DNA of 64,000 bases from an uncultured Chloroflexia bacterium (GCA_963828165.1 CAWHDR010000001.1:224001-288000), one strand, 5' to 3'. Counted from the stretch's first letter, positions 4,301 to 34,641 are shown. Notes: generated from the sequence alone by a model not told the origin. A program made the numbers and translations.

Positions 4301-4349
4301 GATGTCGTGGCTTCGTGGCCACAGAGGCCGGCTTTTGGAGGAGACGCTG

Positions 4350-7258: not shown

Positions 7259-7260
7259 CG

Positions 7261-16739: not shown

Positions 16740-17843
16740 ATGAGCAAGAACGGCGCCGTTCATCTGGTCGGCAGTGTCCCGCTCGAGAGCGTCGAGGACG
16801 TGTTTCGTACGTGCGCTGACGCCCTCGGAACGCGCGTCTCCTCCTATCCCGACGGGGAGGTCGGCCAACGGAAGTACTGGACCTTCTACCTTCCTACCCG
16901 AACGTATTCGGTCCACCCCGATCTGGAAGCGGTCAATGCGCCCCCAGACGGTCAGGTTCGACAGCCGACAGCGGGGGCGAGCCAGAAGGAATGGAACGAA
17001 TCGTGGTGGACCTTCAAGCTGCGGCCGGGCGTGAGCCACCTGACGTTCGAAAGCCTTCACTACGTCGAAGAAGCGACGCGATCCTACGAGATCTTTCGAA
17101 GGCTCCGCGCCGACGGCGTCATCCCGGTGGATGCCCGGTTCCAGGTGAGTTTTCCCGCCACTGGCTCGGCGGTGATGGGCTTTTTCGCGCGACCGGCGGA
17201 CTGGCCGACGGTCTATGACGCGTATCGGCGGGCGATCCGCCAAGAGGTGGCGCAGATCGTCACCTCGATCCCGCACGACGATCTGGTGATCCAATGGGAC
17301 ATCGCCAGCGAGGTCCGCGACATCCTGGCCGGCGACGCACCACTTCTGCCCTGGTCGCCGGAGACATCGCTCGAAGAGAAGTGGCAGCGCCATCTCGGTG
17401 ACATGGGCCACCTGTCCGCCGACATCCCGGAAGACGTCGTCCTTGGCTACCACTTCTGCTTCGGCACCTGGGGTGGCTGGCCGAAGTCCGTGGCGCCCGA
17501 CATGGGGGTCGCTGTCCGTCTCGCCAACGAAGCGGTCGCCCGGGCTGGACGTCGCGTCGACTACGTGCATCTGCCGGTGATGCCGGACGCCGACGATGCC
17601 TACTTCGGACCGATGCAGGGACTTGCGATCGGGAACACCTGGCCGTTCCTCGGGATCGTCCTCGACGACGGCTTGGACGCCTTCGAACGGCGTGCCCGAG
17701 CCGCGCAACGGTATGTGCCCGAATTCGGCATCGCGTCGTATTGCGGCTGGGGCCGCGAAGATCCCGCCCGAGTGCCATCGCTCCTGCGGAACCTTCGGGA
17801 GAGCGCCGAGCGCTTGACCAAGGTCTTGTCGCCCGTGTCGTGA
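16740..17843 (+). CDS. UROD/MetE-fold protein (cobalamin-independent methionine synthase catalytic-domain-like), function unknown
   Basis: 'HLVGSVP', 'PDGE', 'IQWD', zinc-type H-x-C ('YHFCFG') and C-terminal Cys ('SYCGWGR'). Confidence 0.65.
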   Translation: MSKNGAVHLVGSVPLESVEDVFRTCADALGTRVSSYPDGEVGQRKYWTFYLPTRTYSVHPDLEAVNAPPDGQVRQPTAGASQKEWNESWWTFKLRPGVSHLTFESLHYVEEATRSYEIFRRLRADGVIPVDARFQVSFPATGSAVMGFFARPADWPTVYDAYRRAIRQEVAQIVTSIPHDDLVIQWDIASEVRDILAGDAPLLPWSPETSLEEKWQRHLGDMGHLSADIPEDVVLGYHFCFGTWGGWPKSVAPDMGVAVRLANEAVARAGRRVDYVHLPVMPDADDAYFGPMQGLAIGNTWPFLGIVLDDGLDAFERRARAAQRYVPEFGIASYCGWGREDPARVPSLLRNLRESAERLTKVLSPVS

Positions 17844-17873: not shown

Positions 17874-18896
17874 TCAGGGCAGGAGCACGCTCCTGAGGAC
17901 GCGCCCGGCTCGCAGGTCATCGAGTGCATCGTTGGCAGCATCAAGCGGACGCACTGCCTGGACCAGGTGGTCGACCGTGATCGTCCCGTCAAGATAGAGG
18001 TCGATGGCGTCGCGGATGTCGTCCGGCACAAACCCCCGCGACCCGAGGACGGCGAGCTCCCGCCAGAAGATGTCCACGGCTCGTGCCTGGAACGGATCGA
18101 CGCTCGCACCGATCAGTACGACCCGGCCGCCTGGACCGCCCATGGCGATGGCTTGCTCATCGACGGCCGCCGAGCCGACGCACTGGATGACGACATCCGG
18201 TCCGTGGCCACCTGTCAGGGCCTTCACGGCAGCGACCGGATCGCCATCGTCGGCGGCCACGGTCTCGTCCGCGCCGAGCTCACGGGCCAGCCGCAGCTTC
18301 GCCGCCGACCGTGTCACGGCGATGACTCGTGCCCCCATCGCCTTCCCGATCTGCACGGCATTGGATCCCAGGCCGCCCACACCAAGCACGACCAGGGTCT
18401 CGTCGGGCTGCAGCTTCGCGACTCGCTTGAGACCATGGAGCGGCGTGGCGACGGCGTCGGTCAGGACGGCCAACACGGGGGGCGGCACCGGGGCGCGCGG
18501 GACGATGAGTGCTTCCGGCGGGCGGAGAACGTACTCGGCGAACGCGCCATCGACGTCCACCCCCATGCGCGTCACGTGTGGGCTGATGTTCGGCCGCCCA
18601 CGGGCCGCCCACGGATCGTCGGCCGGCGTCGTGATGTAGTAGAGCGCGACCTGGTCCCCGACCGCCACGCCTTCGACCCCATCGCCGAGCGCATCCACCA
18701 CGCCGGCGGCCTCATGCCCGGGGATGACCGGCAACGAGACGGAGTCGCCGAAGCCGCCCTTCTGCAGGAACACGTCCGAGCCGCACACCCCGCACGCTTC
18801 CACCCGGACGCGAACCTCGCCGGCTCCGGGCTCCGGTATGGGCCGCGACGTCAGCCGAAGTGGCGCGCCGACCGCTGGCAGCTCCACCGCCCGCAT
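17874..18896 (-). CDS. Zn-dependent MDR-family alcohol/polyol dehydrogenase
   Basis: CGSD, PGHE, TDAVAT, GVGGLG. The cysteines of the structural zinc site are absent. Confidence 0.9.
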   Translation of the reverse strand: MRAVELPAVGAPLRLTSRPIPEPGAGEVRVRVEACGVCGSDVFLQKGGFGDSVSLPVIPGHEAAGVVDALGDGVEGVAVGDQVALYYITTPADDPWAARGRPNISPHVTRMGVDVDGAFAEYVLRPPEALIVPRAPVPPPVLAVLTDAVATPLHGLKRVAKLQPDETLVVLGVGGLGSNAVQIGKAMGARVIAVTRSAAKLRLARELGADETVAADDGDPVAAVKALTGGHGPDVVIQCVGSAAVDEQAIAMGGPGGRVVLIGASVDPFQARAVDIFWRELAVLGSRGFVPDDIRDAIDLYLDGTITVDHLVQAVRPLDAANDALDDLRAGRVLRSVLLP

Positions 18897-18919
18897 CGTG
18901 GCCACCGCGATCCGGTCGC

Positions 18920-19687
18920 TCAATACATCAGGAATCCACCCGACACGTTGAGCGTCGAGCCGGTGATGTACTTGGCATGATCCGACGCGAGGAAGACGAC
19001 CGGGCCGGCCAGCTCCTCGGGCTCGGCCACGTAGCCGAGCGGCGTCTGCTTCTTCATCGATTCGTAGATCTCGGGAGCGAGGCCGGTCATGAGCATCGGC
19101 GTGTGGACCTGGCCCGGGGAGACGCAATTGACCGTGATCTGATGCGGCCCGAACGTCCGCGCGAGGCCGCGACACATCGTCGTGACGCCGCCCTTCGAAG
19201 ACGCGTAGGCGACCGAGCCACCGAAGCCGCCGGTCCACCAGCCCTGCGAGGTGAACAGGATGATCCGGCCACCCTGCTCCGCCTTGATCATCGCGTTGCC
19301 CGCGGCCCGGGCGAGGAAGAACGCCGACTTCACGTTGACGTCGTGCTGGAAGTCCCAGTCGTCCTCGGTGACCTCGTCGAGCGAGCCCCGGCGCCGGAGG
19401 ACGGCGGCGAGGTTCGCGAGGACGTACAGCCCACCGAGTTCCTTCTCCGCCCGCGCCACGAGCGCTTCGTGGCTGGCGAGATCGCTCAGGTCGGCGACCG
19501 CGGCCACGTGGCCGCTGCCGTCGAGCGAGCCGACCAGGTCGTCGAGTCGTGACTGATCCAGGTCCACGGCCATGACCTTCGCCCCTGCGCTGGCGAACCC
19601 CCTGGCCACGGCCGTCCCGATACCACCGGCGGCACCGGTCAGGATGACTCCGCGGCCCTCGAGCCCGGCGCCCACGCTCCACGTCAT
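18920..19687 (-). CDS. SDR-family oxidoreductase
   Basis: TGAAGGIG, YASSK, 'VNCVSPG'. RBS GAGGAGGAG. Confidence 0.92.
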   Translation of the reverse strand: MTWSVGAGLEGRGVILTGAAGGIGTAVARGFASAGAKVMAVDLDQSRLDDLVGSLDGSGHVAAVADLSDLASHEALVARAEKELGGLYVLANLAAVLRRRGSLDEVTEDDWDFQHDVNVKSAFFLARAAGNAMIKAEQGGRIILFTSQGWWTGGFGGSVAYASSKGGVTTMCRGLARTFGPHQITVNCVSPGQVHTPMLMTGLAPEIYESMKKQTPLGYVAEPEELAGPVVFLASDHAKYITGSTLNVSGGFLMY

Positions 19688-19736
19688 GTCGCTCCTCCTC
19701 TCCCCTGCCCCGCGCCACGCATCAGCGCCCGCGTCC

Positions 19737-20882
19737 TCACCCGCCGCCGAGCACCTTCTCGCTCCGGTATCGATCGACGACCTCCTGGCTGACGTCGATC
19801 CCGAGGCCCGGCTTCGTCGGCGGGTAGAACCAGCCATCCTTGTGCTCGATCGGCTCGGGCACGAGCTCGTGCTGCATCGGATTGCGGAGTGGCTTGACCT
19901 CGATCAGCTTGAAGGCCGGTGAGCTGAAGCTCATCGCCAGACTGGCCGCGGTGACGATGGCGGACGACCAGCAGTGGGCGTTCGCCTGGCGCCGGTAGAA
20001 CTCGATCCGTTCGACGGCGCGCTTGAAGCCGGTGATCCCCTCGGCTCGCCCGGGGTCGATGCCGACCACGTCGACCGTGCCGGTGCCGAGCACCCGCTCG
20101 AAGCCCTCCACGTTCCACTCCTTCTCGCCGTACGCGATCAGGCTCGTGGTCTTGCTGCGCAGGTTGGCGTAGCCCTCCGGATCCCACGCGCCGAGCGGTT
20201 CCTCGATCCAGTGGAGGCCGTACTCATCGAACGCCTGGACGCGCCGGACGGCCGTCATGACGTCCCATTTCACGTTCCACCCGCAGTCGATCATGATCAT
20301 CTGCTCGGGCCCAAGCCCCTCGCGCATCTTGCGGATGTACTCGACGTCCCGATCGTGCTCGTACCCGAGCCGGGCGTTGCCCCGCTTGCCGAAGCCGACC
20401 TTGAGGCCATGCATCCCGGGGGCGACCCATTCCTGGGCCTCTTCGACCATCCGGTCGATGTCCTCGTAGTGGGCATGGCTCGAGGCCACGGCCGGCAGCT
20501 TCTCGTGGACCGCGCCGCCCAGGAGCTGGACGACCGGTACCTCCAGGAGCTTGCCCTTGATATCCCAGAGCGCGATGTCGATCGCGGCGACGGCATAGCT
20601 CGCGATGCCGCCGTTGTAGCCGTACCACCACATCTGGTCACGAAGCGAGTGCCAGATCGCGATGTTGTCGAGCGGGTCCTTGCCGACCACCCGCTCCGCC
20701 ATGCCCTCGATGATCGCCTTGACCGCGAAGTTCGCCTCGGGGAACTGGGTGATGGACTCACCCCAGCCCACGACACCGTCGTCGGTCGTGATCTTGACGA
20801 GGCAGAGGTGCCGGAGCGCATCGTAGTCGTTCGGCTCCGGGTAGCTCACGGGGATGGCTTCGACCGTCTGGACCTTGCTCAC
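19737..20882 (-). CDS. Enolase superfamily, mandelate racemase subgroup (acid-sugar dehydratase-like)
   Basis: 'IDIALWDIKGK', metal ligands D(CG), E(EP), (G)E, His in 'NAHCW', 'PGLGID'. RBS AAAGGAG. Confidence 0.9.
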   Translation of the reverse strand: MSKVQTVEAIPVSYPEPNDYDALRHLCLVKITTDDGVVGWGESITQFPEANFAVKAIIEGMAERVVGKDPLDNIAIWHSLRDQMWWYGYNGGIASYAVAAIDIALWDIKGKLLEVPVVQLLGGAVHEKLPAVASSHAHYEDIDRMVEEAQEWVAPGMHGLKVGFGKRGNARLGYEHDRDVEYIRKMREGLGPEQMIMIDCGWNVKWDVMTAVRRVQAFDEYGLHWIEEPLGAWDPEGYANLRSKTTSLIAYGEKEWNVEGFERVLGTGTVDVVGIDPGRAEGITGFKRAVERIEFYRRQANAHCWSSAIVTAASLAMSFSSPAFKLIEVKPLRNPMQHELVPEPIEHKDGWFYPPTKPGLGIDVSQEVVDRYRSEKVLGGG

Positions 20883-21042
20883 GAGGGACAGGCTCCTTTC
20901 GGGAGGATGGCTGGGCGATCGACCCGCCGAGCGGGCCCTCCTTGCCCGGCCGATACAGCACGGGACAGCGGCTCGGCACGCCCGAGCACCACGGTTTCGA
21001 CCGGCTGGGACAGGTTGCAGATCCAAGCGTGAATCGCGTCTG

Positions 21043-21066
21043 ATATCATTTCCAGACTCGTTTCCA
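21043..21066 (-). promoter_or_regulatory. Tandem LacI-type operator candidate (TGGAAACGAGTC-TGGAAATGATAT)
   Basis: Two adjacent 12-bp units in a divergent intergenic region. Confidence 0.6.
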
Positions 21067-21150
21067 CCCGACGGTCATCGTAGGGTCGCCCTTCTCCTGC
21101 GTCAATCCGGATCGAGGCCCTGACGGGCCCCGCGAAAGGAGTCCAGATCG

Positions 21151-22218
21151 ATGGCGAAGCTCCGCCTCGGCGTCATCGGTGCCGGGTCGTGGACGCTTGG
21201 TTCCCACTTGCCGAATCTGGCCAAGCACCGGGACGAGGTCGAGTTCGTCATCGTCAACCGGCGCAATCCGGACCTGCTCTCCAAGATCCAGTCGGAATGG
21301 GGCTTCGCCAAGTCCTCGACGGACTGGCATGACGTCATCGCCGAGAAGCCGGACATCGTCGTGATCGGGAGCCCACCCGGTTACCACTGGGAGCAGAGCA
21401 AGGCCGCGCTCGAGGCCGGTGCGCAGGTCATGTGCGAGAAGCCCTTCACGATCGACCCGGCGCATGCCTGGGACCTCGACGAGACCACCCGTCGGACGGG
21501 GAACCACCTGATCCTGTCCTACGGCTGGAACTACCGGCCGATGGTCATCGACGCGCACCGGATGATGCACGAGGATGGTGGCGTCGGCGAGATCGAGCAC
21601 GTCGCGCTGCACATGGACTCCGTGACCCGGGAGCTGCTGTCCGAGACGGGCGACTACCCCGGCGCCTCGCCCGAATCCATCCCCCAGCCGGACACGTGGT
21701 CGCGTCCCGAGACATCCGGTGGTGGCTACGGGCAGGCCCAGCTGACCCACCTGCTCGGCGTCTCGCTCTGGCTGACCGAACTGCGCGGCCAGGACGTGTT
21801 CGCATTCATGTCCGCTCCACTGGACGCCAAGGTGGAGCTCCACGACGCGGTCTCGATCCGGTACACGAATGGCGCGATCGGCACGATGAGTGGCGCGTCG
21901 AGCCACCTCGGCGGCGCGAACAACCGTCATGCCGTGGAGGTCCGCGTGGTCGGCTCGAAGGGCATGTTCCACCTCGATCTGCGCGACAACGTCCTGTGGC
22001 GCTATCGCTCGCCGGCGGACGACGTCCGCGTCCCACTCGAATCCGACGCCGGCCTGTACGACTGCACGGGACCGATCGAGGCGCTCGTGGCGGCCGGCGC
22101 CGGCCGGCCGTTCGACAACAATTCACCGGCCGAGCTCGGTGCCCGGACCGTCGAGATCCTCGAGGCCGCGTACCGCAGCGCGGGCAGTGGGGCTGCGGAG
22201 CGGGTGAAGACGCTGTGA
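21151..22218 (+). CDS. Gfo/Idh/MocA-family oxidoreductase
   Basis: GAGSW Rossmann motif, 'CEKP', 'WSRPETSGGG', 'THLL'. Confidence 0.92.
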   Translation: MAKLRLGVIGAGSWTLGSHLPNLAKHRDEVEFVIVNRRNPDLLSKIQSEWGFAKSSTDWHDVIAEKPDIVVIGSPPGYHWEQSKAALEAGAQVMCEKPFTIDPAHAWDLDETTRRTGNHLILSYGWNYRPMVIDAHRMMHEDGGVGEIEHVALHMDSVTRELLSETGDYPGASPESIPQPDTWSRPETSGGGYGQAQLTHLLGVSLWLTELRGQDVFAFMSAPLDAKVELHDAVSIRYTNGAIGTMSGASSHLGGANNRHAVEVRVVGSKGMFHLDLRDNVLWRYRSPADDVRVPLESDAGLYDCTGPIEALVAAGAGRPFDNNSPAELGARTVEILEAAYRSAGSGAAERVKTL

Positions 22219-22266
22219 TGATCCCTCCCGCCAGGTCAACGAACCAGAACGTCATGGAGTGTCGCG

Positions 22267-23376
22267 ATGCTCGCTGAAGTCACCAGCCCGCTCAAGGGCG
22301 AATGGATGACGCCTCGACGGCGCTTCCTCTCGGCTGTCTATCGCGGCAACGTCGACAAGGTGCCGGCCTGTACGCTCAGCTCGGTCGTGACGGTCGAGAT
22401 GATGGACCTGGTCAATGCGCCCTTCCCCGAGGCGCACCTGGACGCCGAGCTCATGGCCAGGCTCGCGGCGACCGCGCACGACGTGTTCGGGATGGACACG
22501 ATCATGCCGGTCTTCCATTCCCAGCTCGAATCGGATGCGCTCGGCGGCGAGACCGAGTGGGCCGAGAAGGACAACTGGCCATCGCCGTCGCGGTTCACGA
22601 TCGAGGAGCCTGACCAGGTCAAGATCCCCGACGACTTCGTCGAGCGGCCGACCATGGCCGCGGTCACCGGCGCGATCAAGCTGCTCCGCCATCGCTACCC
22701 GGACGTCGCCATCGTCGGCAAGGTCTACGGCCCGTGGTCGGTCGGCTACCAGATGGTCGGCATCGAGAGCTTCCTGATGGACGTCATGCTCGATCCGGAC
22801 AAGATCAAGCGCTACCTGGACGCGTTCGTGCCGGCCTGCATCGCCTCCGCCCAGGCGCAGTTCGAGGCGGGTGCCGATGCCGTGATGTGGGCCGACCACA
22901 CGACCGGCGACCTGTGTCGTGCCGAGACCTACCGCGACTTCCTGCTGGAGATGCACCAGCACATCACCCAGGAGATGGGCGGGCCCGGCATCTTCCACTG
23001 CTGCGGCAAGACCATCGACCGGGTGCACCTCTTCGCCGCGGCCGGCTGGGATGTCTTCCACTTCGAGTCCCAGGTCGACGCCCGCGAGGCCCGCGAGATG
23101 GCCGGCGAGCGCATGGCGCTGATGGGCAACCTCAACAACCCGACGCTGCTCTGGCAGGGCACGCCCGAGGAGGTCTACAAGGCGTGCTGGGACCTCATGG
23201 ATGCCGGCGTCGACGGGCTCGCGCCTGAGGGCTCGGTCCCGCTCGTGACCAAGAAGGAGCCGCTGATGGCGATCGCCCACGCGGCCCGCGACTGGTCGGC
23301 ACTGCATCGTGGCGACGACGGCGTCGTCCATCGCCCCGACCCATCCACCAGCACGTATCCCGGCTACCCGGGCTAG
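22267..23376 (+). CDS. MtaA/CmuA-like (UROD-fold) corrinoid methyltransferase
   Basis: MtaA-like N-terminus 'DKVPAC...VEMMD...FPEAH..AELMARLA', 'GPWS', 'FHCCG', 'GNLNN'. Directly upstream of a corrinoid protein. Confidence 0.85.
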   Translation: MLAEVTSPLKGEWMTPRRRFLSAVYRGNVDKVPACTLSSVVTVEMMDLVNAPFPEAHLDAELMARLAATAHDVFGMDTIMPVFHSQLESDALGGETEWAEKDNWPSPSRFTIEEPDQVKIPDDFVERPTMAAVTGAIKLLRHRYPDVAIVGKVYGPWSVGYQMVGIESFLMDVMLDPDKIKRYLDAFVPACIASAQAQFEAGADAVMWADHTTGDLCRAETYRDFLLEMHQHITQEMGGPGIFHCCGKTIDRVHLFAAAGWDVFHFESQVDAREAREMAGERMALMGNLNNPTLLWQGTPEEVYKACWDLMDAGVDGLAPEGSVPLVTKKEPLMAIAHAARDWSALHRGDDGVVHRPDPSTSTYPGYPG

Positions 23377-23412
23377 GCCACAAGAACCAGAGACGTAGGA
23401 GAACCACGGAGC

Positions 23413-24075
23413 ATGGCGGACCTGAAGCGACTCCAGACGGCTGTCGAGGTCGGCGACCGCGAGACCGCGGTCGAGGTGACCCAGCAGGCGATCGACGAGG
23501 AGATCCCTCCGAAGACCGTGCTCGATGCGATGACCGACGCGATGGGGGTCGTCGGTCAACGCTTCCAGGACAACGAGATCTACGTCCCCGAGATGCTGAT
23601 CAGCGCCCGGGCCATGAAAGCGGCCGTCGCGCTCCTGGAGCCGCTGCTCATCGGCTCGGGCTACAAGCCGGACAGCGTCGCCGTCATGGGCACGATCAAG
23701 GGCGATCTCCACGACATCGGCAAGAACCTCGTCGGGATGATGCTCAAGGGCGCGAACTTCGAGATCTTCGACCTGGGCACCAACGTCTCGGTCGACAAGT
23801 TCATGGCCGCCGCACGCGAGCACAAGGCGGACATCATCGGGATCAGCGCCCTGCTGACGACGACCATGGGCGGCATGCGCGGCGTGATCGAGGCCGTCCG
23901 TGCCGCGGACGACCTGCCGAACCTCCCGGTCATGGTCGGCGGCGCGGCGGTGACCAAGGAGTTCGCCGAGCAGATCGGCGCCGACGGCTGGGCGCCGGAC
24001 GCCGGCTCCGCGGTCATCCTCGCCCGGCGCCTCGTCGCCGAGGCACGCGCGGCGCGAGCCGACAACGTCGCCTGA
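23413..24075 (+). CDS. Corrinoid (B12-binding) methyl-carrier protein
   Basis: Cap domain 'YVPEMLISARAM', D-x-H-x-x-G motif 'GDLHDIGKNLV', 'SALLTTT', 'VGGA'. Confidence 0.95.
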   Translation: MADLKRLQTAVEVGDRETAVEVTQQAIDEEIPPKTVLDAMTDAMGVVGQRFQDNEIYVPEMLISARAMKAAVALLEPLLIGSGYKPDSVAVMGTIKGDLHDIGKNLVGMMLKGANFEIFDLGTNVSVDKFMAAAREHKADIIGISALLTTTMGGMRGVIEAVRAADDLPNLPVMVGGAAVTKEFAEQIGADGWAPDAGSAVILARRLVAEARAARADNVA

Positions 24076-24083
24076 CGGGACGG

Positions 24084-25154
24084 CTAGGGCGCGGGCGACC
24101 CCACGGATGGCGCCGGCGTTGCCGCCGGCAGGCGCCCGGCCCGGAACGCATCGATGAACTCCACCCCGAAGGCGTCGACGCCGGTCAGGAGATCCGCGGC
24201 CAGTCGGTAGGACTCGGCCTCGCGGTCCGGCGCCAGCGCGCTGCGGATGTCGGCCGCGACCGGGTCGACGATCCCGCTGTCCTGGCCCGCCACCACGCAC
24301 AGGTCGAGGAAGACGTCGCTGATGAGCCGGCGCGCCGGCATCCCGAACGACACGTTGGACACGCCGCTGGTGATGTGGAGCTCCGGTCCGTAGCGGGCGC
24401 GTAGCTGGCGGACGGCCTCGAGGTAGGCGGACCCGCCATCCGGGTCGACACCGATCGGGATGACCAGCGGGTCCACGTGCAGCGCGGCGAGGTCGAGACC
24501 GTGGGCGACTGCCATCTCGATCAGCTCGACCGCGCGGACCATTCGCTCCTCGGTGCCGGTCGGCATCGTCGCCCCCGTCGAGGACAGCACGACCGGCGAG
24601 CCACGATCAGCCGCCATCCCAAGGACGTCGACTCTGTCGGCCGCTGCCGAGTTCAGCATCGGTGGAGCCCCGCCGGCCCAGCCCGGGTCCAGGAGCTCGA
24701 GCCCGACGGTCATCACCGACGAGTCGGACGAGTCGATGGAGAGTGGGACGCTCGACACCGGGCCGACCGCCCGGACGAGCCAGGCCATGGCCTCGAGGCG
24801 ACCGTCGACATCGGGTGAGACCTCGTCGACGTTGATGTCGAGATAGGCCGCGCCGCCGGCGATCTGGCGAGCTGCCATCCAGCGCACATACGCGGTGGCG
24901 ATCGCGGCATCGGGGCCGTTGGCCATCCCCTCCAGCACGGCGGCCATCACGTGCTTGACACGGCCAGACTGGAATTCGCGCGTGTCCTGGATGACCGGCG
25001 GGACCGGCAGCAGGGCCTCGCCGTCCTCGAGCGGGACCCGGACGGCCGGCTGGCCCGACGGTGTCTCGGCGATCCGGCTACCGTCGCGGCGGACGACCCG
25101 GCTCGTGTGGATGTTCTCGCCGATGATGATGAACGGCACTGGCGGGACGGACAA
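24084..25154 (-). CDS. Pterin-binding methyltetrahydrofolate:corrinoid methyltransferase (AcsE/MeTr-like)
   Basis: 'IIGENI', 'YLDINVD', 'LSIDS', 'LNS', 'VDPLVIP', 'GVSNVSFGMP'. TTG start after GGAGGA. Confidence 0.85.
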   Translation of the reverse strand: MSVPPVPFIIIGENIHTSRVVRRDGSRIAETPSGQPAVRVPLEDGEALLPVPPVIQDTREFQSGRVKHVMAAVLEGMANGPDAAIATAYVRWMAARQIAGGAAYLDINVDEVSPDVDGRLEAMAWLVRAVGPVSSVPLSIDSSDSSVMTVGLELLDPGWAGGAPPMLNSAAADRVDVLGMAADRGSPVVLSSTGATMPTGTEERMVRAVELIEMAVAHGLDLAALHVDPLVIPIGVDPDGGSAYLEAVRQLRARYGPELHITSGVSNVSFGMPARRLISDVFLDLCVVAGQDSGIVDPVAADIRSALAPDREAESYRLAADLLTGVDAFGVEFIDAFRAGRLPAATPAPSVGSPAP

Positions 25155-25188
25155 CGAGCGATCCTCCAAGTCGGTAACGGGCGCCGCG

Positions 25189-26800
25189 TCAGGCGGCGAT
25201 GGGCACGAATCGGCAGCCGTCGACGAACAATTCGAAGAAGTCGTCCTCGGTCTCCAGCTCGACGTGCTCGATCCGCCCGACGAGCGCGTCGAGAGCGTCG
25301 CGCCGGCTCCTGGACAGCAGCAGGCCGGCGGCGCCATGGAGCGCCGCGTTGCCGACGCGGACCACGCGATCGACGGGGACCGGCGCGAGCAGGCCGATCT
25401 CGATCGCGTTCTGCACGTTCACGGCGTTGGCGAACCCGCCCGCGAGATAGACCCGGTCGACCTGGTCGGCGGTCACCCCCAGGCGGCGGAGCAGGATCCG
25501 CTGGCCACAGGCGTTCGCGGCCTTGGCCTGTGCGAGCAGGCTCGCGTCCGACCGCGAGAACGTGATGCCCTGCTCAGGCGCGACGAGAAACTCGTCCAGG
25601 TCGTCACGGAACCGACCCTCTTCGTTCATCCAGCGCGCGCGCCGGAGTTCGGCCAGGACGTCGACGAGTCCCGAACCGCAGATGCCGACCGGGTCGACGT
25701 CCCCGATCGTGCCCAGCGTGAATGCCTCACCCTCGAGTTGGATCGTTTCGATGGCCCCGTCGGCGCCCGACATCCCGAAGCGCAGCAGGCCGCCCTCGAA
25801 CGCCGGGCCGGCCGGGCACGAGGCCGCCAGGAAGCGCGTCCCGTCGGTCACCACGACTTCGGTGTTCGTGCCGATGTCGATGAGCATCCGGATGCCCTGG
25901 CCCGTGGCGAACTCGACCGCGACGAGGTCGGCCGCGGTATCGCCGCCGACGTGACTGGCGATGACCGGGGCACCGACCACGCGGCCATGGGGGTTCATGA
26001 GCAACCCGACCTCGTGGCCGCGCCGCCGGACCCAGGTCGAGTCGCTCTGGCCGGCGAGCATCGCGACTTCCGTGATCGACTTGTACGGGAACTCGCCGAT
26101 CGGCCCGATGTCGATGCCGAAGAACAGGTCGCGCATCGTGCTGTTGGCGACGATGATCGCCTCGTAGACCTCGTGTCGGTCGATCCCGTGCTCCCGGTAC
26201 AGGTCGCGCAAGGCGTGGTTGAGCGCGCGGCGAACGGCCAGCCGCATCGCGCCCGGGAAATCCTTCTCGTAGGAGATGCGGGTCATCACGTCGCTGCCGC
26301 CGAAGCGCTGCGGGTTCTCGAGGGCGCCGCCCGCGACGGCTGCGCCGGTCAGCAGGTCGATGATCCGGAAGACGACCGTCGTCGTGCCGATGTCGATCGC
26401 CAGCCCGAGCACATGGTTCCGCCGGAGCCCGATGGGCTGGCCCGCATAGAACACCGCCGTGTCGTCCGCGGTGACGACGGGGTCCAGCCGGGTGGCCGGC
26501 GCTTCCATCGATTCGAGGATGCGCATCCGCCGGCGGATGATGGCGAAGTCGATGTCGGTCGTCGCGGTCTCGATCGTGGCCTGGCAGGCGAGACGGAAGC
26601 CGCCCTTCAGATACGCCTCCGGCAGCGTCCGCGGCGAGAGACCTTCGAACCCCTGGCGGACCTCGACCACGCACTCTCGGCAGCGACCGGTCCGGCGACA
26701 CGATTGCGGGCACCGCCGACGACACCTCGTCGGCGTAGTCGAACAGCGTCCGCCCGACGACAAGCGGACGGTGCTCGATCCCCTGGATGACTTCAGGCAA
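25189..26800 (-). CDS. ASKHA ATP-dependent reductive activator of corrinoid proteins (RACE/RACo) with N-terminal [2Fe-2S] domain; apparent +1 frameshift at 26708-26710
   Basis: 'SCRRTGRCREC...RLACQ', 'IDIGTTT', 'IDIGTNTE', 'PAGPAFEG', 'GICGSG', 'LAGGF'. The N-terminal 'PEV...RTLFDYAD...AVP' lies in another frame. Confidence 0.88.
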
Positions 26801-26891
26801 GCTGGCGGACCTCGGGTGGCACTGTCGACTGACCGGCGCCGTTTGTCGCCGGCCGTCGATCGCTGTGTGCGCGGCGACGACTATCCCACGC

Positions 26892-26915
26892 TGGTAGCGG
26901 TTCTGCAATCGTTAC
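26892..26915 (+). promoter_or_regulatory. Tandem LacI-type operator candidate (TGGTAGCGGTTC-TGCAATCGTTAC)
   Basis: Two adjacent 12-bp CG-centred units upstream of the activator gene. Confidence 0.55.
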
Positions 26916-26971
26916 CGACGGGGTCGGCCCGTCTGGAGCCGGCGCGGGGCTGCGCCAGGGCTCCGCAGCGA

Positions 26972-28015
26972 TCAGCCGGCGTGTGGGACCGGGCCGCAGC
27001 TCGGGCGGGGCGTAAAGGTCGTCGGAAGCAGGACGGTGCGCGGTTCGCCCCCGCCCAGCCGCTCCAGCAGGAGCTCGGCGGCCGTGCGGCCCAGCAGCAG
27101 GGTGTCGCGCGCGACCGACGCGATCGGCGGGTCATGCAGCTCCGACAGGTCGACTTCATCGCAGGTCACCAGCGAGATGTCGGTCGGGATCTTCACGCCG
27201 TGCCGGACCAGCGCACGCACGCAGCCGGCGAGGACCTGGTTGCCGCCCGCGACGATGGCGGTCGGTCGCGGGTCCATCGTCAGCAGCTGCTCGGTCGATG
27301 CCTCGCCGTGCTCCGCGGACAACGATCCAGCCAGGGTGATGGTCTCGTCGCGGATGCCTTTGGCGGCAACGGCATCGGCCATGCCGGCGATCCGTTCGCG
27401 AACGGGCCACAGGTCGAGAGGGCCGGTGATGAGCGCGATCCGGCGGTGTCCGAGATCAAGCAGGTGCTCGACCGCGGCTCGCATCCCCGTCTTGTGATCG
27501 TTGCGCACGATGCTCGCCCGCAGATCGCCGGGGACGTCTCGGTCGATCATGATGATCGGGACGTCGACCTGGGTCAGGACGTCGAGGGTCCCCGAGCGCC
27601 GTTCGCTCGCGAGGGACAGGATCATGCCGTCGACACGCCGCGCCTGGAAGAACCGGATGTGGGCGGCGTCGAGCTCGGGGTCGTTCTCGGAATTCATCAG
27701 GAGCATCGAGTAGCCCGCCGAGCGGAGCGCGGACTCGGCACCCGACGTGATGGTGGCGATCAGCGGGTTCGAGATGTCGCCGACCACGTACCCGACGGAC
27801 AGGGTGGCGCCGCGACGCAGGCTCTGGGCCAGGAAGTCCGGCTCGTACTCCAGCTCCTGTACGGCGGCCAGGACGCGCTCGCGCATCTCGAGGCTGACAT
27901 CCGGATGCTCCGAGAGGACGCGGGAGACCGACGAGATCGCGACGTCGGCCAACTCGGCGACCTCGCGCATGCTGGCCCGCTTACGCCGGAGGTCCATCCG
28001 CCTGCCATCGTTCAT
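26972..28015 (-). CDS. LacI-family transcriptional regulator
   Basis: HTH 'SMREVAELADVAISSVSRVL', hinge 'YEPDFLAQSLRRG', sugar-binding domain. Start is 28015 or 27997. Confidence 0.95.
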   Translation of the reverse strand: MNDGRRMDLRRKRASMREVAELADVAISSVSRVLSEHPDVSLEMRERVLAAVQELEYEPDFLAQSLRRGATLSVGYVVGDISNPLIATITSGAESALRSAGYSMLLMNSENDPELDAAHIRFFQARRVDGMILSLASERRSGTLDVLTQVDVPIIMIDRDVPGDLRASIVRNDHKTGMRAAVEHLLDLGHRRIALITGPLDLWPVRERIAGMADAVAAKGIRDETITLAGSLSAEHGEASTEQLLTMDPRPTAIVAGGNQVLAGCVRALVRHGVKIPTDISLVTCDEVDLSELHDPPIASVARDTLLLGRTAAELLLERLGGGEPRTVLLPTTFTPRPSCGPVPHAG

Positions 28016-28188
28016 CCACGATCCCTCCCGTCGCGTCGTTGACCCGTCGCCGAGCGCGGTCGGGCGGCGGATTCGTCGTTCCAGTAACGGTTTCAGCGAC
28101 GGTAGCATAGCCAGCGTTGCCGTGCTGTTCCGTTCCCGCCCCAGGGATCGCCCGTGATTGACGATTCCGCGGCCCGGATGCCACGATG

Positions 28189-28216
28189 TGTAAACGAAAC
28201 TGGAAACGGTACCGCC
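28189..28216 (+). promoter_or_regulatory. Tandem LacI-type operator candidate (TGTAAACGAAAC-TGGAAACGGTAC)
   Basis: 28198-28216 is identical over 19 bp to 40781-40799. A further unit (TGAAACCGTTAC, minus strand) lies at 28084-28095. Confidence 0.7.
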
Positions 28217-28277: not shown

Positions 28278-29243
28278 ATGACCGCCACTTCCACCCCAGA
28301 TCGGCTCGACTGGTACCGGACGATGCTCCGGATCCGGCTCTTCGAGGAGAAGGTCCAGGAGCTGTTCATGACCGGGCAGATCCAGGGAACCACCCACCTC
28401 TGCCAGGGTCAGGAAGCCGTCTCCGTCGGCGCGATCGCGGCGATGCAGCCCGGCGACGTGCAGACCAACACGTACCGCGGCCACGGCGAGGCGCTGGCTC
28501 TTGGCATGGACCCGGAAGTGGCTTTTGCCGAACTCATGGGGCGGCGGACCGGCGGCTCCGGCGGCGTCGGCGGGTCGATGCACCTGATCGACTTCAGCAA
28601 GGGCAACATCGGCGCGAACGCCATCGTCGGGGCCGGGCTGCCGATCGCGGTCGGCGCAGCGGTCGCCTTCCAGATGCAGAAGAAGCCCAACGTCGCGCTC
28701 TCGTTCTTCGGGGACGGCGCGACGAACATCGGGACGTTTCACGAGGCCCTGAACATGGCCGCGGTCTGGACGGCCCCGGTCGTGTTCATCATCACCAACA
28801 ACCTGTACGGCGAGTACAGCCCGCTGCGGGCGACGACTCCCCTGGACGACCTGGCCCGGCGCGCCGATCCGTTCGGCATGCCCGGGATCATCGTCGACGG
28901 CCAGGACATCGACGCGGTGCACAGCGCGACGGTCGAGGCCGTCGAGCGGGCGCGCGGCGGTGAGGGGCCCAGCCTCCTCGAGATGAAGACGTATCGCTAC
29001 CGCGGCCACAGCCGGTCCGACCCCGCGAAGTACCGACCGGAGGGCGAGCTCGATCGCTGGAAGGCACGCGACCCGATCGAGCTTCTGGGCGCGCTGCTGG
29101 TGGCGGAGTCGATCATCGGACCGAACGACGCCGGCGAGATCCGGACCGAGACCCAGGCCGAGATCGATGCCGCCGCCGAGCGAGCGGCGAGTGCCCCCTT
29201 CCCCACCCTGGAGGAGACGCGACCCTATGTCTACGCTGAGTGA
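28278..29243 (+). CDS. TPP-dependent dehydrogenase E1 alpha subunit (acetoin/pyruvate dehydrogenase-like)
   Basis: 'GQEA', 'YRGHG', 'GGSMH', TPP motif 'GDGATN...NN', 'YRYRGHS..DP'. Confidence 0.95.
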   Translation: MTATSTPDRLDWYRTMLRIRLFEEKVQELFMTGQIQGTTHLCQGQEAVSVGAIAAMQPGDVQTNTYRGHGEALALGMDPEVAFAELMGRRTGGSGGVGGSMHLIDFSKGNIGANAIVGAGLPIAVGAAVAFQMQKKPNVALSFFGDGATNIGTFHEALNMAAVWTAPVVFIITNNLYGEYSPLRATTPLDDLARRADPFGMPGIIVDGQDIDAVHSATVEAVERARGGEGPSLLEMKTYRYRGHSRSDPAKYRPEGELDRWKARDPIELLGALLVAESIIGPNDAGEIRTETQAEIDAAAERAASAPFPTLEETRPYVYAE

Positions 29244-30243
29244 GGCGGCGCCGGCGGAGACCGGGAGCACGACCGAGCTGACCTACCGCGAGGCGATCAA
29301 CGCCGCGCTCGACGATGCGATGGCGGCGGATGACGCGGTCCTGCTCATGGGCGAGGACGTGTCCGCCGATGGCGGCGTCTTCAAGACCAACATCGGGCTG
29401 TCCGAGAAGTACGGGCTCGAGCGTGTCCGGAACACGCCGATCTGCGAGAACGGGTTCCTCGGCGTTGCCCTTGGCATGAGCCTCGTCGGGATGCGACCCG
29501 TCGTGGAGATCATGTTCGCCGACTTCCTGCCGACGGCCGGGGACGCCATCGTCAACCAGCTCCCGAAGTACCGGTACATGTCCGGTGGCCAGACATCGGT
29601 GCCGGTGACGGTCCGATCCGTCAGCGGCGCAACCGGGCGCTTCGGCACCCAGCATTCGGCGACCGGCGAGAGCTGGTTCATGCACCTGCCAGGCCTCCGG
29701 GTCGTGACCGCCTCGTCGCCCGGGTCGGCCTACAGCCTGCTCCGGGCCGCCATCGACGATCCGAACCCGACGCTGTTCTACGAGCACAAGGGCCTGTACG
29801 CGCGCAAGGGGCCGGTGGTCCGCGGCGAGATCGCGGAGATCGGGAAGGCGCAGGTCGTCCGCCCGGGCAGCGACGTCACGATCGTGACGACGCTCCTGAT
29901 GGTCGAGCGCAGCCTGGCGGCGGCCGAGCAGCTGGCGGAGGATGGCATCGACGCCGAGGTCATCGACCTGCGCTGGCTCCGTCCGCTCGATCTCCCGGCG
30001 GTCCGAGCCTCGGTCGAGAAGACCGGTCGGATCGTCGTCGCCGAAGAGCAGGTCCATGCCGCCGGCTGGGGCGCGACGATCGTGAGCGAGCTGACCATCG
30101 GCGGGGTCGAATGGGCCAGCGCGCCTCGCCGCGTGAGCTTGCCCGACGACCTGCCGATCCCATACACCCCGCCACTCGAGGACGAGGTCCTGCCGTCGAC
30201 CGAATCGATCGCCGCGGCGGCCCGGGCCAGCGTCGGGCGTTGA
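29227..30243 (+). CDS. TPP-dependent dehydrogenase E1 beta subunit
   Basis: 'GEDV...GGVF', 'NTPICE', 'EIMFADF', 'QHS', 'EHKGLY', 'IDLRWLRPLD'. Confidence 0.95.
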   Translation: MSTLSEAAPAETGSTTELTYREAINAALDDAMAADDAVLLMGEDVSADGGVFKTNIGLSEKYGLERVRNTPICENGFLGVALGMSLVGMRPVVEIMFADFLPTAGDAIVNQLPKYRYMSGGQTSVPVTVRSVSGATGRFGTQHSATGESWFMHLPGLRVVTASSPGSAYSLLRAAIDDPNPTLFYEHKGLYARKGPVVRGEIAEIGKAQVVRPGSDVTIVTTLLMVERSLAAAEQLAEDGIDAEVIDLRWLRPLDLPAVRASVEKTGRIVVAEEQVHAAGWGATIVSELTIGGVEWASAPRRVSLPDDLPIPYTPPLEDEVLPSTESIAAAARASVGR

Positions 30244-31428
30244 GCGAAGCCCCGAGCGCATCGGTCGCGCCGCGGACGCTCGACCGGAACGCGCTCATCG
30301 TCGACCGGATCGAGACCGTCGCACTTCGTGCGCCGCTCGGTCGACGGTTCTCGGGCAGCGCCTACAGCATGGACAACCGGTGCACGATCGTGACTCGGCT
30401 GCACACCCACGACGGCCTGGTGTCGGAGGTGTACACCGGCGATACCGACGTCGAGCAATCCATCATCGTCGCGATCATCCATGACGAGCTGGCGCCCCGC
30501 TTGCTGGGACGAACGGCGACCGATCCCGAGGGCGCGTGGCGAGCCATGGAACCCGCCACCAACGACATCCTGCGCGATCGGGGCCTGGCGTTGCAGGCGA
30601 TCTCGTGTGTCGATGAAGCCATCTGGGACGTCTTCGGACGGGCCATCGGCCTGCCACTGCACCGCATCTGGGGGAGCACCGGCGACACCGTCCCGATCAG
30701 CATCATCGGCGGCTATTACCACCTGTCGATCGACGAGATGGCCGAGGTCATCCAGGGCTATGTCGAGGCCGGGTTCGCGGGCATGAAATTCAAGGTGGGT
30801 GGTCGCACTCCGGCGGAGGATGCCGCCCGCGTGCGTGCGGCTCGGGGGGCGGCGGGCCCGGACTTCGCGCTGATGGTCGACGCCAACCAGGGCTACGACC
30901 GTGCGCAGGCGGTGAAGTTCGCCCAGCTCGTGTGGGACCTCGACATCCGCTGGTTCGAGGAGCCATGCCGCTGGACGAACGACGCCCGCTGGATGCGCGA
31001 TGTCCGGTACCAGACGGCCATCCCGGTGTGCGCCGGACAGAGCGAGACGACCCTCGTCGGCATCCGCGACCTCATCGTCGGCGGCGCCATCGACGTCTCC
31101 AACTTCGATGCCTCCTGGGCAGGCGGCCCCACGATCTGGCGCAAGGCAGCCGGCCTCGCTGCCGCGTTCGGGGTCGAGCTCGGACACCACGAGGAACCGC
31201 AGATCGCGTCGCACCTGCTGGCCAGCGTGCCCGAACCACACGTTCGTCGAGTGCTTCGACGAGGAGCGCGACCCGTTCTTCTGGCGCCTCACGGACATGT
31301 CGACGCGGATCCGGGACGGGGGCTACACGCTGCCGGACCGCCCCGGGTTCGGCATCGAGCTCGATATGGATTACGTACGACGCCACACCGTCGCGACGCG
31401 GTCGACCGACCGCCACAGCCTCACGTAG
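30240..31428 (+). CDS. Enolase superfamily, mandelate racemase subgroup; apparent +1 frameshift at 31230-31232
   Basis: 'MKFKVG', 'VDANQ', 'FEEP', 'GQSE', 'GHHEE'. The C-terminus 'NHTFVECF...RDPFFW...PGFGIELD' lies in the next frame and aligns with paralog 39574-40713. Confidence 0.85.
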
Positions 31429-31439
31429 GAGGGACGCCG

Positions 31440-31895
31440 ATGGCGGCCGTCACCGGGTTCTTCCACGGCGGGATCACCGTCAGCGACATGGAGCGCGCCC
31501 TGGTCTTCTACCGCGATGGATTGGGCCTGGAACAGGAATTCGACCGGATCCTCGACGCGCCGTACCTGCCCGCGGTGCTGGGTCTCGAGTTCGACCACAT
31601 CCGGGCCGTCTACCTCCGGATCCCCGGCGGCGGCTTCGTGGAGCTGCTCGAGTACGTCGGCATCGAACGGATGTCCGCTGCGTCGCGACCATGCGATTAC
31701 GGGGCGGGCCACCTGTGTCTCTACGTGGACGACGTCGAGGCGATGCACGCGCGGCTGGTGAAGCTTGGGTTCGCGGCCCGCTCGGAACACGTCGTCGATA
31801 TCACGGCGGGTCCCAACCAGGGTGCGCGCAGCTGCTACATGGCCGATGCCGACGGGTATGCCGTCGAGCTGTTCCAGAAGCGCCCCGGAGGCTGA
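31440..31895 (+). CDS. VOC/glyoxalase-family metalloprotein
   Basis: H/E/H/E motifs 'HGGITVSD', 'VELLEY', 'GHLCLYVDD', 'VELFQ'. Has its own RBS AGGAGG. Confidence 0.88.
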   Translation: MAAVTGFFHGGITVSDMERALVFYRDGLGLEQEFDRILDAPYLPAVLGLEFDHIRAVYLRIPGGGFVELLEYVGIERMSAASRPCDYGAGHLCLYVDDVEAMHARLVKLGFAARSEHVVDITAGPNQGARSCYMADADGYAVELFQKRPGG

Positions 31896-34579: not shown

Positions 34580-34641
34580 GACGTCGACCCTGGGAGGGAA
34601 CGGGCGTGCCATCCGACCGCCCGAACGAGGAGGAGATTCGC

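Follow-up and report, generated by a model that had tools for sequence, protein, structure and literature searches.

The window analysed here, 64,000 nucleotides from the genome of an uncultured Chloroflexia bacterium (GCA_963828165.1 CAWHDR010000001.1:224001-288000), carries at positions 21151-28108 three genes on the plus strand, followed by two converging genes on the minus strand and then by a LacI gene, also on the minus strand. We understand this block as a corrinoid-dependent methyl-X:tetrahydrofolate demethylase cassette, accessory to a large LacI-controlled island for the catabolism of carbohydrates or sugar acids, a reading to which we give about as much credence as doubt. The four components of a corrinoid O-demethylase system are encoded together: a substrate-side methyltransferase (MT1), a corrinoid protein, a methyl-corrinoid:tetrahydrofolate methyltransferase (MT2) and a reductive activator. 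This type of system is already known; what appears to be undescribed is the version that associates an MtaA-like enzyme with tetrahydrofolate, together with its hosts, its control by LacI and its carbohydrate setting. A tie between cassette and island is supported because the two share an operator word and a divergent promoter region, and because genomes of the genus either have the island or lack it in one piece. Neighbours and regulation suggest that the substrate is most likely a methylated sugar, cyclitol or sugar acid; an O-methyl sugar is plausible, and an S-methyl compound is a serious rival.

Anatomy and conservation of the cassette

The G+C content of the window is about 69%, and reading frames were therefore picked by their third-position G+C, then checked with Pfam and NCBIfam (Table 1). 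The five genes proposed in an earlier, sequence-only reading of this DNA, and the LacI gene with them, were recovered by Pfam at the positions and on the strands that it gave; the four-component architecture that it recognized is real, and is kept as a unit across loci. The plus-strand genes are separated by gaps of 48 and 36 nucleotides, and the two strands meet at 24075/24084.

A scan using one genome per species yielded 164 confirmed relatives, and the counts of loci presented in this work cover the best 80 of these 164. Thirty loci belong to Chloroflexota, with 74-98% identity to the methyltransferase of the window, 38 to Acidimicrobiia (62-65%), many of them named as sponge-associated Spongiisociaceae, and 12 are more distant (41-51%). 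The four core genes are found together at 20 of the 30 Chloroflexota and 35 of the 38 Acidimicrobiia loci or, when at least 5.5 kb of downstream sequence is present, at 15/19 and 33/33 respectively; because the loci come from related genomes, such counts overstate independence and none is a statistical test. The exceptions to the four-gene set are L023-L025 and L053. In the first three, none of the other core genes (corrinoid protein, MT2, RACo) lies less than 10 kb from the methyltransferase homologue (81-82% identity); this homologue is accompanied in L025 by another URO-D-family gene, which is shorter, and L024 retains LacI, E1 and MR_MLE neighbours. In Acidimicrobiia the order, on one strand, is MT1, corrinoid protein, RACo and MT2. 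A DUF1638 gene follows the corrinoid protein in some Chloroflexota loci, clusters L018-L020, L022 and L053 contain a DUF1638 gene, and an MTHFR gene is inserted between MT2 and RACo in L022 and L026. The GFO gene accompanies the methyltransferase at 21/30 Chloroflexota loci and at 0/38 Acidimicrobiia loci. The best protein matches are named Candidatus Limnocylindrales or Chloroflexota, and the related loci come from Limnocylindria-type metagenome-assembled genomes. Within the class, 2 of 151 genomes, that of the window included, give a match with an E value of 1e-60 or better, and so does one of the nine other genomes of the genus.

The enzyme that we propose as MT1 just passes the cut-off of the MtaA/CmuA family model TIGR01463 (236.1 bits, for 235.4), remains slightly under that of the subfamily model NF004889 (240.1, for 244), and does not reach the MtaA/MtbA equivalogs (NF040654, 214.9 for 400; NF041608, 166.9 for 600). 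Its best solved relative is 4ay7, the methylcobalamin:coenzyme M methyltransferase MtaA of Methanosarcina mazei, aligned over its full length (E 8e-46), and uroporphyrinogen decarboxylases rank after MtaA in the PDB search, from E 1e-8. The nearest named and solved relatives are of the MtaA type, and no solved aromatic O-demethylase comes closer; the aromatic branch of the UroD superfamily comprises MtvB, OdmB, VdmB and MtoB. In the available part of PMC10418091, MtaA-like proteins branch separately from the UroD-type aromatic O-demethylases OdmB and VdmB; the accessible text of PMC13222342 likewise places the aromatic O-demethylases in another branch of the superfamily. One JGI name among the protein matches is "methylthiol:CoM methyltransferase".

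The pair H244-x-C246 is conserved across 19 homologues, down to 45% identity. The zinc site of MtaA, which we take to consist of a His-x-Cys pair and a distal Cys, is incomplete here, its distal Cys being missing: the position of the cysteine in the PGCG motif of MtaA reads PEGS, and E321 is invariant in 19/19 aligned homologues, in an alignment that retains many other invariant polar residues. The lost Cys ligand and the conserved Glu would fit a harder, oxygen-binding metal site. A corrinoid protein gene adjoins the methyltransferase at 27/30 Chloroflexota and 38/38 Acidimicrobiia loci, an adjacency that supports a predicted methyl transfer between the corrinoid protein and a small substrate. 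At locus L064, a 520-amino-acid protein (P0088), 95% identical to the methyltransferase of the window over 54% of it, joins B12-binding_2, URO-D and B12-binding domains; this is possibly a CmuA-like fusion, possibly an assembly artefact.

Residues 97-103 of the corrinoid protein read GDLHDIG and match the DxHxxG base-off/His-on motif; its best NCBIfam matches are of the MtgC type, below cut-off. The closest structures to MT2 are 4o0q, 4o1e and 4o1f (E 3e-28), presumably the MT2 of the Desulfitobacterium hafniense O-demethylase, followed by MeTr/AcsE and the folate domains of MetH. Structures 4O1E and 4O1F served as CH3-H4F and H4F templates, according to the available part of PMC13222342. With NF005719, MT2 scores 165 bits, under the cut-off of 259. 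Because its long open reading frame overlaps the 3' end of the RACo gene, the true start of MT2 is probably near 25130-25190; the median length of its orthologues is 347 amino acids.

The activator deserves particular attention. It reaches 266 bits with the NCBIfam model AcsV, which is below cut-off, and the ASKHA/[2Fe-2S] protein announced by the sequence-only reading is recovered in part: its ASKHA portion stands, while its [2Fe-2S] portion is found only across a frame change near 26707. RACo orthologues, 536 amino acids long, are encoded in a single frame, reading ...SAVPQSCRRTGRCRECVVEV..., and those of Acidimicrobiia match Pfam Fer2; the window matches the orthologue stretch ...FDYADEVSSAVPQSCRRTGRCRECVVEV... 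only with a switch of frame near 26707-26708. A one-base insertion near 26707 thus separates the [2Fe-2S] domain from the rest of RACo, so that the domains do not share one frame in the window, the middle and ASKHA domains being intact. The two related-organism contigs that cover 26707 (2/2) have one base fewer; all contigs aligned over 21000-27000 came from relatives. Among the sequencing runs that share words with window 21000-27000 there was no RNA run, and all word shares were 0.16 or less. The break in the frame may be an indel of the assembly, or else a lesion that inactivated the gene recently.

Shared control and carbohydrate neighbourhood

The degenerate palindrome-like word GGTANCGNTTNCA, with at most one mismatch, is matched eight times in the window, for 0.91 expected, a number reached in 0 of 100 shuffles. 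Its four exact copies all lie before operons (Table 1); a palindrome-like word repeated before operons is the signature of a LacI regulon, and we consider these copies as predicted sites. Only the degenerate palindrome-like form is enriched: when up to three mismatches are allowed, GGTAACGATTGCA gives 11 matches for 7.2 expected, which is no enrichment. The operator motif had been attributed to both transcription units of the cassette. This is correct for the RACo-MT2 operon, which is preceded by an exact copy; near 21043 there is only a copy with two mismatches.

This imperfect copy falls inside a 31-nucleotide block, TCTGATATCATTTCCAGACTCGTTTCCACCC, that occurs once in the window and is unchanged in 10/10 aligned orthologous loci, in the midst of variable flanks. 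On its minus strand, the block comprises two TGGAAA(C/T)G half-site-like words, and it is probably a binding site for a regulator. A promoter-like TTGACG-17-TACGAT is located just upstream of it, on the minus strand; apart from this site, a scan for promoters and terminators found nothing above chance. Because the block adjoins this promoter-like site of the divergent MR_MLE-SDR-ZnADH operon, the two operons share a control region. Rfam has no match on the window or on 20950-21250, so the block is not a known riboswitch. A LacI gene is found near the cassette at 16/30 Chloroflexota and 2/38 Acidimicrobiia loci.

Predicted proteins within 8 kb were clustered at 35% identity or more, and named by Pfam, NCBIfam and PDB searches. 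Sugar-oxidation neighbours recur in both phyla: zinc-dependent alcohol dehydrogenase (Zn-ADH; 12 Chloroflexota and 9 Acidimicrobiia loci), SDR (17 and 6), AraA/SftI-like isomerase (4 and 7), PTE-family hydrolase, with PTE/SGL lactonase-like proteins (1 and 8 for the PTE family), MR_MLE (16 and 1), LacI (13 and 2 in these 8-kb clusters) and E1 beta (9 and 2). The recurrent linkage to sugar genes expected by the sequence-only reading thus holds in Chloroflexota and in the 13 of 38 Acidimicrobiia loci that have sugar-type neighbours, and fails in the other 25. On the tree of URO-D proteins, three separate (paraphyletic) groups of Acidimicrobiia have the ZnADH/isomerase/PTE/SDR context, a pattern consistent with an ancient association that some lineages have since lost. 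The E1 alpha and beta genes also adjoin the cassette in L022 and in the Acidimicrobiia loci L057 and L058; in L022, E1 alpha/beta, MR_MLE, a family III CoA-transferase, RACo, MTHFR and MT2 are consecutive on one strand.

Of the 12 loci with more distant homologues (41-51%), ten were examined, two being too short, and 5/10 place the homologue in the company of sugar-acid genes (LarA-like, galactarate/altronate dehydratase, MR_MLE, CdaR, glycerate kinase, TRAP), without a corrinoid protein; the latter is present at 1/10. The homologues set among sugar-acid genes with no corrinoid protein nearby (L073, L075, L076, L078 and L080; 41-46% identity) belong to an archaeon, an Actinomycetota metagenome-assembled genome, Lachnospiraceae and Anaerolineales.

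As for the island itself, around the cassette there are three ABC systems of the CUT2 type, with binding proteins at 4302-5486, 14190-15362 and 34606-35793, as well as a rhamnose-mutarotase-like gene and a number of genes for MR_MLE, SDR and lactonase proteins. Beyond the left edge of the window it continues for 45 kb or more, with additional CUT2 and TRAP transporters, PTE, SDR, GFO, MR_MLE, a second P450 and LacI. Three near-complete genomes of the genus show no collinear match for window positions 1 to about 44,400, where matches are scattered and of paralogue level, and 79-87% identity from about 44,480 onward. The GFO protein that leads the plus-strand operon has weak NCBIfam matches, below cut-off, with inositol, levoglucosan and xylose dehydrogenases, and its relatives in PDB include DgpA, the putative dehydrogenase 6a3f and scyllo-inositol dehydrogenase.

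Table 1. Coordinates of the cassette, of its control sites and of neighbouring genes (window positions)
Feature	Position	Strand	Basis or remark
GFO/IDH/MocA NAD(P) oxidoreductase	21151-22218	+	Pfam GFO_IDH_MocA, E 6e-17; leads plus-strand operon
MtaA/CmuA-family methyltransferase (URO-D fold), proposed MT1	22267-23376	+	Pfam URO-D, E 7e-55
Corrinoid carrier protein	23413-24075	+	Pfam B12-binding, E 2e-27; B12-binding_2, E 2e-19
Pterin-binding methyl-corrinoid:tetrahydrofolate methyltransferase (MT2)	24084-25337	-	Pfam Pterin_bind, E 7e-16
RACo/RamA-type ATP-dependent reductive activator, long open reading frame	25189-26763	-	Pfam RACo_C_ter, E 2e-64; Raco_middle, E 1e-35
RACo gene across the frame change ([2Fe-2S], middle and ASKHA domains)	25189-26815	-	Orthologue comparison
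LacI-family repressor	26972-28108	-	Pfam LacI and Peripla_BP_1/3
31-nucleotide block TCTGATATCATTTCCAGACTCGTTTCCACCC	21039-21069		Divergent promoter region, MR_MLE-SDR-ZnADH (-) / GFO-URO-D-corrinoid (+)
Predicted operator	6528		Exact; before mutarotase-like gene
Predicted operator GGTAACGATTGCA	26904-26916	-	Exact; upstream of RACo-MT2 operon
Predicted operator	28201-28213		Exact; between LacI and E1 alpha
Predicted operator	40784		Exact; before MR_MLE/CoA-transferase
Divergent MR_MLE-SDR-ZnADH operon	17877-21026	-	
MR_MLE (enolase-superfamily) dehydratase-like	19737-21026	-	Pfam
SDR	~18920-19837	-	Pfam
Zinc-dependent alcohol/polyol dehydrogenase	17877-19031	-	tblastn (79% to L003), NCBIfam
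TPP-dependent E1 alpha and beta	28278-30243	+	Divergent from LacI
AraA-like (distant L-arabinose/sulfoquinovose-isomerase-like) gene	7258-8694	+	Directly after mutarotase-like gene
Cytochrome P450	~8700-10004	+	Follows AraA-like isomerase
367-amino-acid protein without Pfam family	16740-17843	+	Between CUT2 permease and Zn-ADH gene

Substrate, direction of transfer and competing explanations

From the protein families present we infer the following cycle, in which the direction of transfer, the class of the substrate and the role of the GFO protein are inferred likewise. The MtaA-like enzyme would bind the methylated substrate at its His/Cys(/Glu) metal site, and the Co(I) of the corrinoid protein would take the methyl group. 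The pterin-binding MT2 would then move it from CH3-Co(III) to tetrahydrofolate, while RACo, with ATP and its [2Fe-2S] cluster, would re-reduce any Co(II) that accidental oxidation produces. Once demethylated, the substrate would be taken up by the adjacent route of dehydrogenase, lactonase and dehydratase, and methyl-tetrahydrofolate would be oxidised or used by MetH. As a matter of speculation, the GFO oxidoreductase may oxidise an adjacent hydroxyl, making a better leaving group. The catabolic direction is favoured because of the setting of repressor and transporters, the accessory distribution of the cassette, the MTHFR genes of L022 and L026, and the presence of a complete MetH elsewhere in the genome.

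A bolder version of this reading may be proposed, tentatively, as one that we regard as possible and would not call probable. The cassette would be the first of its kind, carrying out a B12- and folate-dependent, oxygen-independent demethylation of an O-methyl sugar, a methyl-cyclitol or an O-methyl sugar acid, with an MtaA-like enzyme re-tooled from thiol to ether by replacement of Cys by Glu at the zinc site. The methyl group would be delivered to the one-carbon pool and not released as formaldehyde, and the cassette would be common to soil Chloroflexota and sponge-associated Acidimicrobiia, probably by transfer. Xylan carries 4-O-methyl-glucuronate, pectin 2-O-methyl-fucose and 2-O-methyl-xylose, porphyran 6-O-methyl-galactose, and legumes contain pinitol; methyl ethers on sugars block ordinary carbohydrate catabolism. 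In the literature searched, the sole published route for their removal is a cytochrome P450 that needs dioxygen and releases toxic formaldehyde. If the proposal is true, a corrinoid/folate route would conserve the methyl carbon, work in the absence of dioxygen and link the supply of B12 to polysaccharide turnover in soil and sponges. Even with an S-methyl or other substrate, we would have an uncharacterised MtaA-like:tetrahydrofolate system, found in uncultured and apparently aerobic members of two phyla, and the cassette, whatever its substrate, widens the known range of corrinoid methyl transfer beyond anaerobes.

A number of observations weigh against our reading. An aliphatic methyl ether is a poor leaving group for attack by Co(I). 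The nearest named relatives of the methyltransferase, MtaA, MtbA and CmuA, branch apart from OdmB/VdmB, and the closest characterised ones use thiols, thioethers or halides. As many as 25 of the 38 Acidimicrobiia loci place the operon among unrelated, non-sugar genes: 16 have an M24/creatinase-like gene upstream and amidohydrolases downstream, eight have a rhodanese or Na/H antiporter gene, and one is short. In Chloroflexota, L023-L025 hold a methyltransferase homologue deprived of the three other genes, and the counts of loci are drawn from related genomes. In the assembly, the activator gene is frameshifted, and the island itself carries a P450 beside the AraA-like isomerase. Finally, no corrinoid-dependent carbohydrate demethylase was found in the literature searched, searches on the demethylation of 4-O-methyl-glucuronic acid, on corrinoid methyltransferases of sponge Acidimicrobiia, on corrinoids of Limnocylindria and on Spongiisoci* retrieved nothing bearing on the cassette, and the sugar demethylase that has been described is a P450 (available parts of PMC6292453 and PMC9400963). 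That enzyme, acting on 6-O-methyl-D-galactose in marine Bacteroidota, fulfils the same physiological task, removal of the methyl ether from the sugar before its catabolism; it differs from the cassette in that its reaction is oxidative and releases formaldehyde, with no corrinoid or folate, as the accessible text of these two articles has it.

Comparison with the O-demethylases of anaerobes (Mtv of Moorella, Odm/Vdm of Acetobacterium, that of Desulfitobacterium hafniense, Mto of Methermicoccus) shows a common set made of a UroD-superfamily MT1, a DxHxxG protein, a pterin-binding MT2 and a RACo-type activator. The window differs from them in several ways: its MT1 appears nearer to the MtaA type than to the aromatic O-demethylase branch, control is of the LacI type, the neighbours are sugar and not aromatic enzymes, and the island carries dioxygen-dependent enzymes (the P450; a luciferase-like oxidoreductase, which may be F420-dependent). 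The type 1 mlp clusters of Kountz and Balskus have two or three Mlp paralogues and no tetrahydrofolate methyltransferase, and belong to obligate anaerobes only, whereas the cassette combines one MtaA-like gene with a tetrahydrofolate methyltransferase.

The first competitor to be considered is an S-methyl substrate, a methylthio-sugar such as 5-methylthioribose, methylmercaptopropionate or another thioether, on which the enzyme would act in the manner of MtsA and MtpA, which use thioethers, releasing a thiol and passing the methyl group to tetrahydrofolate. We hold this to be unlikely, and nonetheless a serious rival. The closest named and solved relatives (MtaA/MtbA models, 4ay7) are thiol or thioether enzymes, to which the JGI name quoted above may be added, and the H-x-C of the thiol-type zinc motif is retained; yet the third zinc Cys of MtaA has gone, leaving a conserved Glu context in its place. 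Some loci have sulphur-related neighbours. A rhodanese lies directly upstream in part of the eight-locus rhodanese/Na-H group, L026 has TauE and L054 a choline-sulfatase-like gene, and the only NCBIfam match of the AraA-like isomerase is sulfoquinovose isomerase (55 bits, far under cut-off); these genes are however scattered, none of them being common to Chloroflexota loci, and the window showed no gene for a C-S lyase, a thiol dioxygenase or the handling of sulfite. The family names and the available part of PMC10418091 indicate that characterised members of the MtaA-like branch handle thiols, thioethers or halides. With the methanogen enzymes MtaA, MtbA and MtsA, the window enzyme shares the fold, the full-length alignment with 4ay7, the H-x-C pair and an adjoining cognate corrinoid protein. 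It departs from them in lacking the third zinc Cys and in its scores, far under the MtaA/MtbA cut-offs, and its cluster has no MtaB, MttB or other MT1, the partner being a tetrahydrofolate methyltransferase.

It could also be that the methyl donor has nothing to do with carbohydrates, being a methylated amine, a betaine-derived compound or a small ether, and that a mobile four-gene unit landed by accident in accessory DNA. The varied contexts of Acidimicrobiia, 25/38 of them non-sugar, and their self-contained, single-strand operon would agree with this view, as would a genome rich in other corrinoid systems, in which there are five or more genes of the MttB family, another RACo, and another corrinoid protein close to MetH. 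So many corrinoid genes mean that the organism uses corrinoid methyl transfer widely, the cassette, which has a carrier and an activator to itself, being a separate system. We nevertheless find an accidental landing rather improbable: cassette and sugar operons have an operator word in common, as cassette and MR_MLE-SDR-ZnADH operon have the invariant promoter block, the GFO gene is co-operonic, neighbours of the Zn-ADH, SDR, isomerase and PTE types are met repeatedly in both phyla and in paraphyletic groups of Acidimicrobiia, and distant homologues too lie among sugar-acid genes.

The frameshift in the activator raises a different question, that of a cassette decaying and already non-functional in this genome, cut as its RACo is between the [2Fe-2S] domain and the rest by the additional base near 26707. 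The other genes of the cassette are intact in the window, with 82-100% identity to their orthologues, the genome has a second RACo, and an assembly in six contigs suggests long reads, prone to single-base indels. Decay seems to us of low probability.

A reverse flow, from methyl-tetrahydrofolate to the corrinoid and then to a thiol or another acceptor, would make the cassette a device for biosynthetic methylation or an alternative system of the methionine synthase type. The content of the module does parallel the four functions of MetH, and the DUF1638 and MTHFR genes of the clusters listed above point in the same direction. Aerobic bacteria do possess split methionine synthases that include DUF1638 and an activator similar to RamA, as found in the available parts of PMC5764234 and PMC12478193: in Phaeobacter the split enzyme genetically requires DUF1638 and a RamA-like activator (PMC5764234), and glycine betaine demethylation in Ruegeria uses a related core of carrier and folate methyltransferase (PMC12478193). 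These examples show that such corrinoid/folate cores function in aerobic bacteria. The roseobacter systems (split methionine synthase, MtgBCD) resemble the cassette in their corrinoid carrier, pterin-binding methyltransferase, RamA/RACo activator and, for some relatives, DUF1638, as far as the accessible text of the same two articles describes them; their substrate-side enzyme is of the MttB family or a homocysteine-binding domain, whereas that of the window is MtaA-like and coexists with a complete MetH.

Indeed, the assembly to which the window belongs (3.31 Mb in six contigs, 87.7% complete) holds a 1287-amino-acid MetH-like frame, with homocysteine, folate and B12 domains. It is one of three PF02574 matches in the genome, none of which belongs to the cassette cluster; the MetE family (PF01717) has no match in this 87.7%-complete genome. 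The full-length MetH makes a plain split methionine synthase unlikely. That the genes might simply be such an enzyme had been named as one case that would undo the earlier reading, and it is made unlikely by this MetH and by the rarity of the cassette in the genus. Rare and accessory, and set in a LacI arrangement of catabolic type with transporters, the cassette is quite improbably the site of a reverse flow.

Dehalogenation of methyl halides (chloromethane, bromomethane) by aerobic soil and sponge bacteria, in the way of the cmu system, appears hardly credible. TIGR01463 spans MtaA and CmuA, and the pterin-binding partner, with an MTHFR adjacent in two loci, resembles the cmu gene set, which includes CmuA, a fusion of methyltransferase and corrinoid domains; in the window these domains are on separate genes, with the 36-nucleotide gap between them. 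CmuA and CmuB are described in the available part of PMC13222342, where CdmB has a metal-free hydrophobic pocket, as opposed to the conserved metal-type motif and invariant polar residues found here. Sugar-type regulation and neighbours would serve no purpose in the use of halomethanes. A plain methanol system is rejected, since it requires MtaB and the cluster has no MtaB-like gene.

Other genes of the island and of its host

The 367-amino-acid protein encoded beside the Zn-ADH gene has an AlphaFold2 model with a pLDDT of 93.7, for which Foldseek ranks cobalamin-independent methionine synthases first (E values from 5e-8 upward, TM of about 0.6). Pfam gave nothing for it even with the threshold at E 10; there was likewise no sequence or profile match in PDB, and no hhalign relation to the URO-D alignment. 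Its family displays an H-x-C ... C motif, H238 and C240 being invariant and C335 almost so. This MetE-C-terminal-like barrel, as modelled, may possibly be a further alkyl-transfer enzyme linked to the corrinoid system.

A second family, rich in Cys and of about 375-405 amino acids, has an invariant FDPC, a C-x-Y-C-x-x-C and a later Cys. Three paralogues are present in the island, the copies being located at G000:C1:222486-223703 (just left of the window), L088:9790-10998 and L089:13664-14854, and the family is found in nine Acidimicrobiia loci (for example L043:4277-5398). The copy beside the window is 65% identical to an Acidimicrobiia copy that adjoins Zn-ADH near the cassette. The family matched nothing in Pfam or PDB; its AlphaFold2 model, of medium quality (pLDDT 68), brought up no Foldseek match with an E value of at most 0.001, and its Atlas matches are unnamed clusters.

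The open reading frame 30111-31895 (plus strand), the start of which overlaps E1 beta, joins MR_MLE and glyoxalase/VOC domains, either as a possible fusion or because two genes are read as one. The second P450 is at L088:7045-8283; a P450 in a sugar context recalls the known oxidative demethylase of methyl sugars.

The genome as a whole has two URO-D genes, the cassette methyltransferase and another (399 bits) that is probably HemE. Its single DUF1638 gene, 47 kb left of the window, comes last in a series of genes (L087:12719-17087, or G000:C1:176719-181087) for a MaoC-like hydratase, an HpcH/malyl-CoA-lyase-like protein and a 630-amino-acid protein without Pfam match, far from corrinoid protein genes. 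A second corrinoid region, at about G000:C1 1,012,000-1,028,000, groups the MetH-like frame, a further frame with an S-methyltransferase domain, MttB, RACo and a corrinoid protein, and at least four further MttB genes are located elsewhere.

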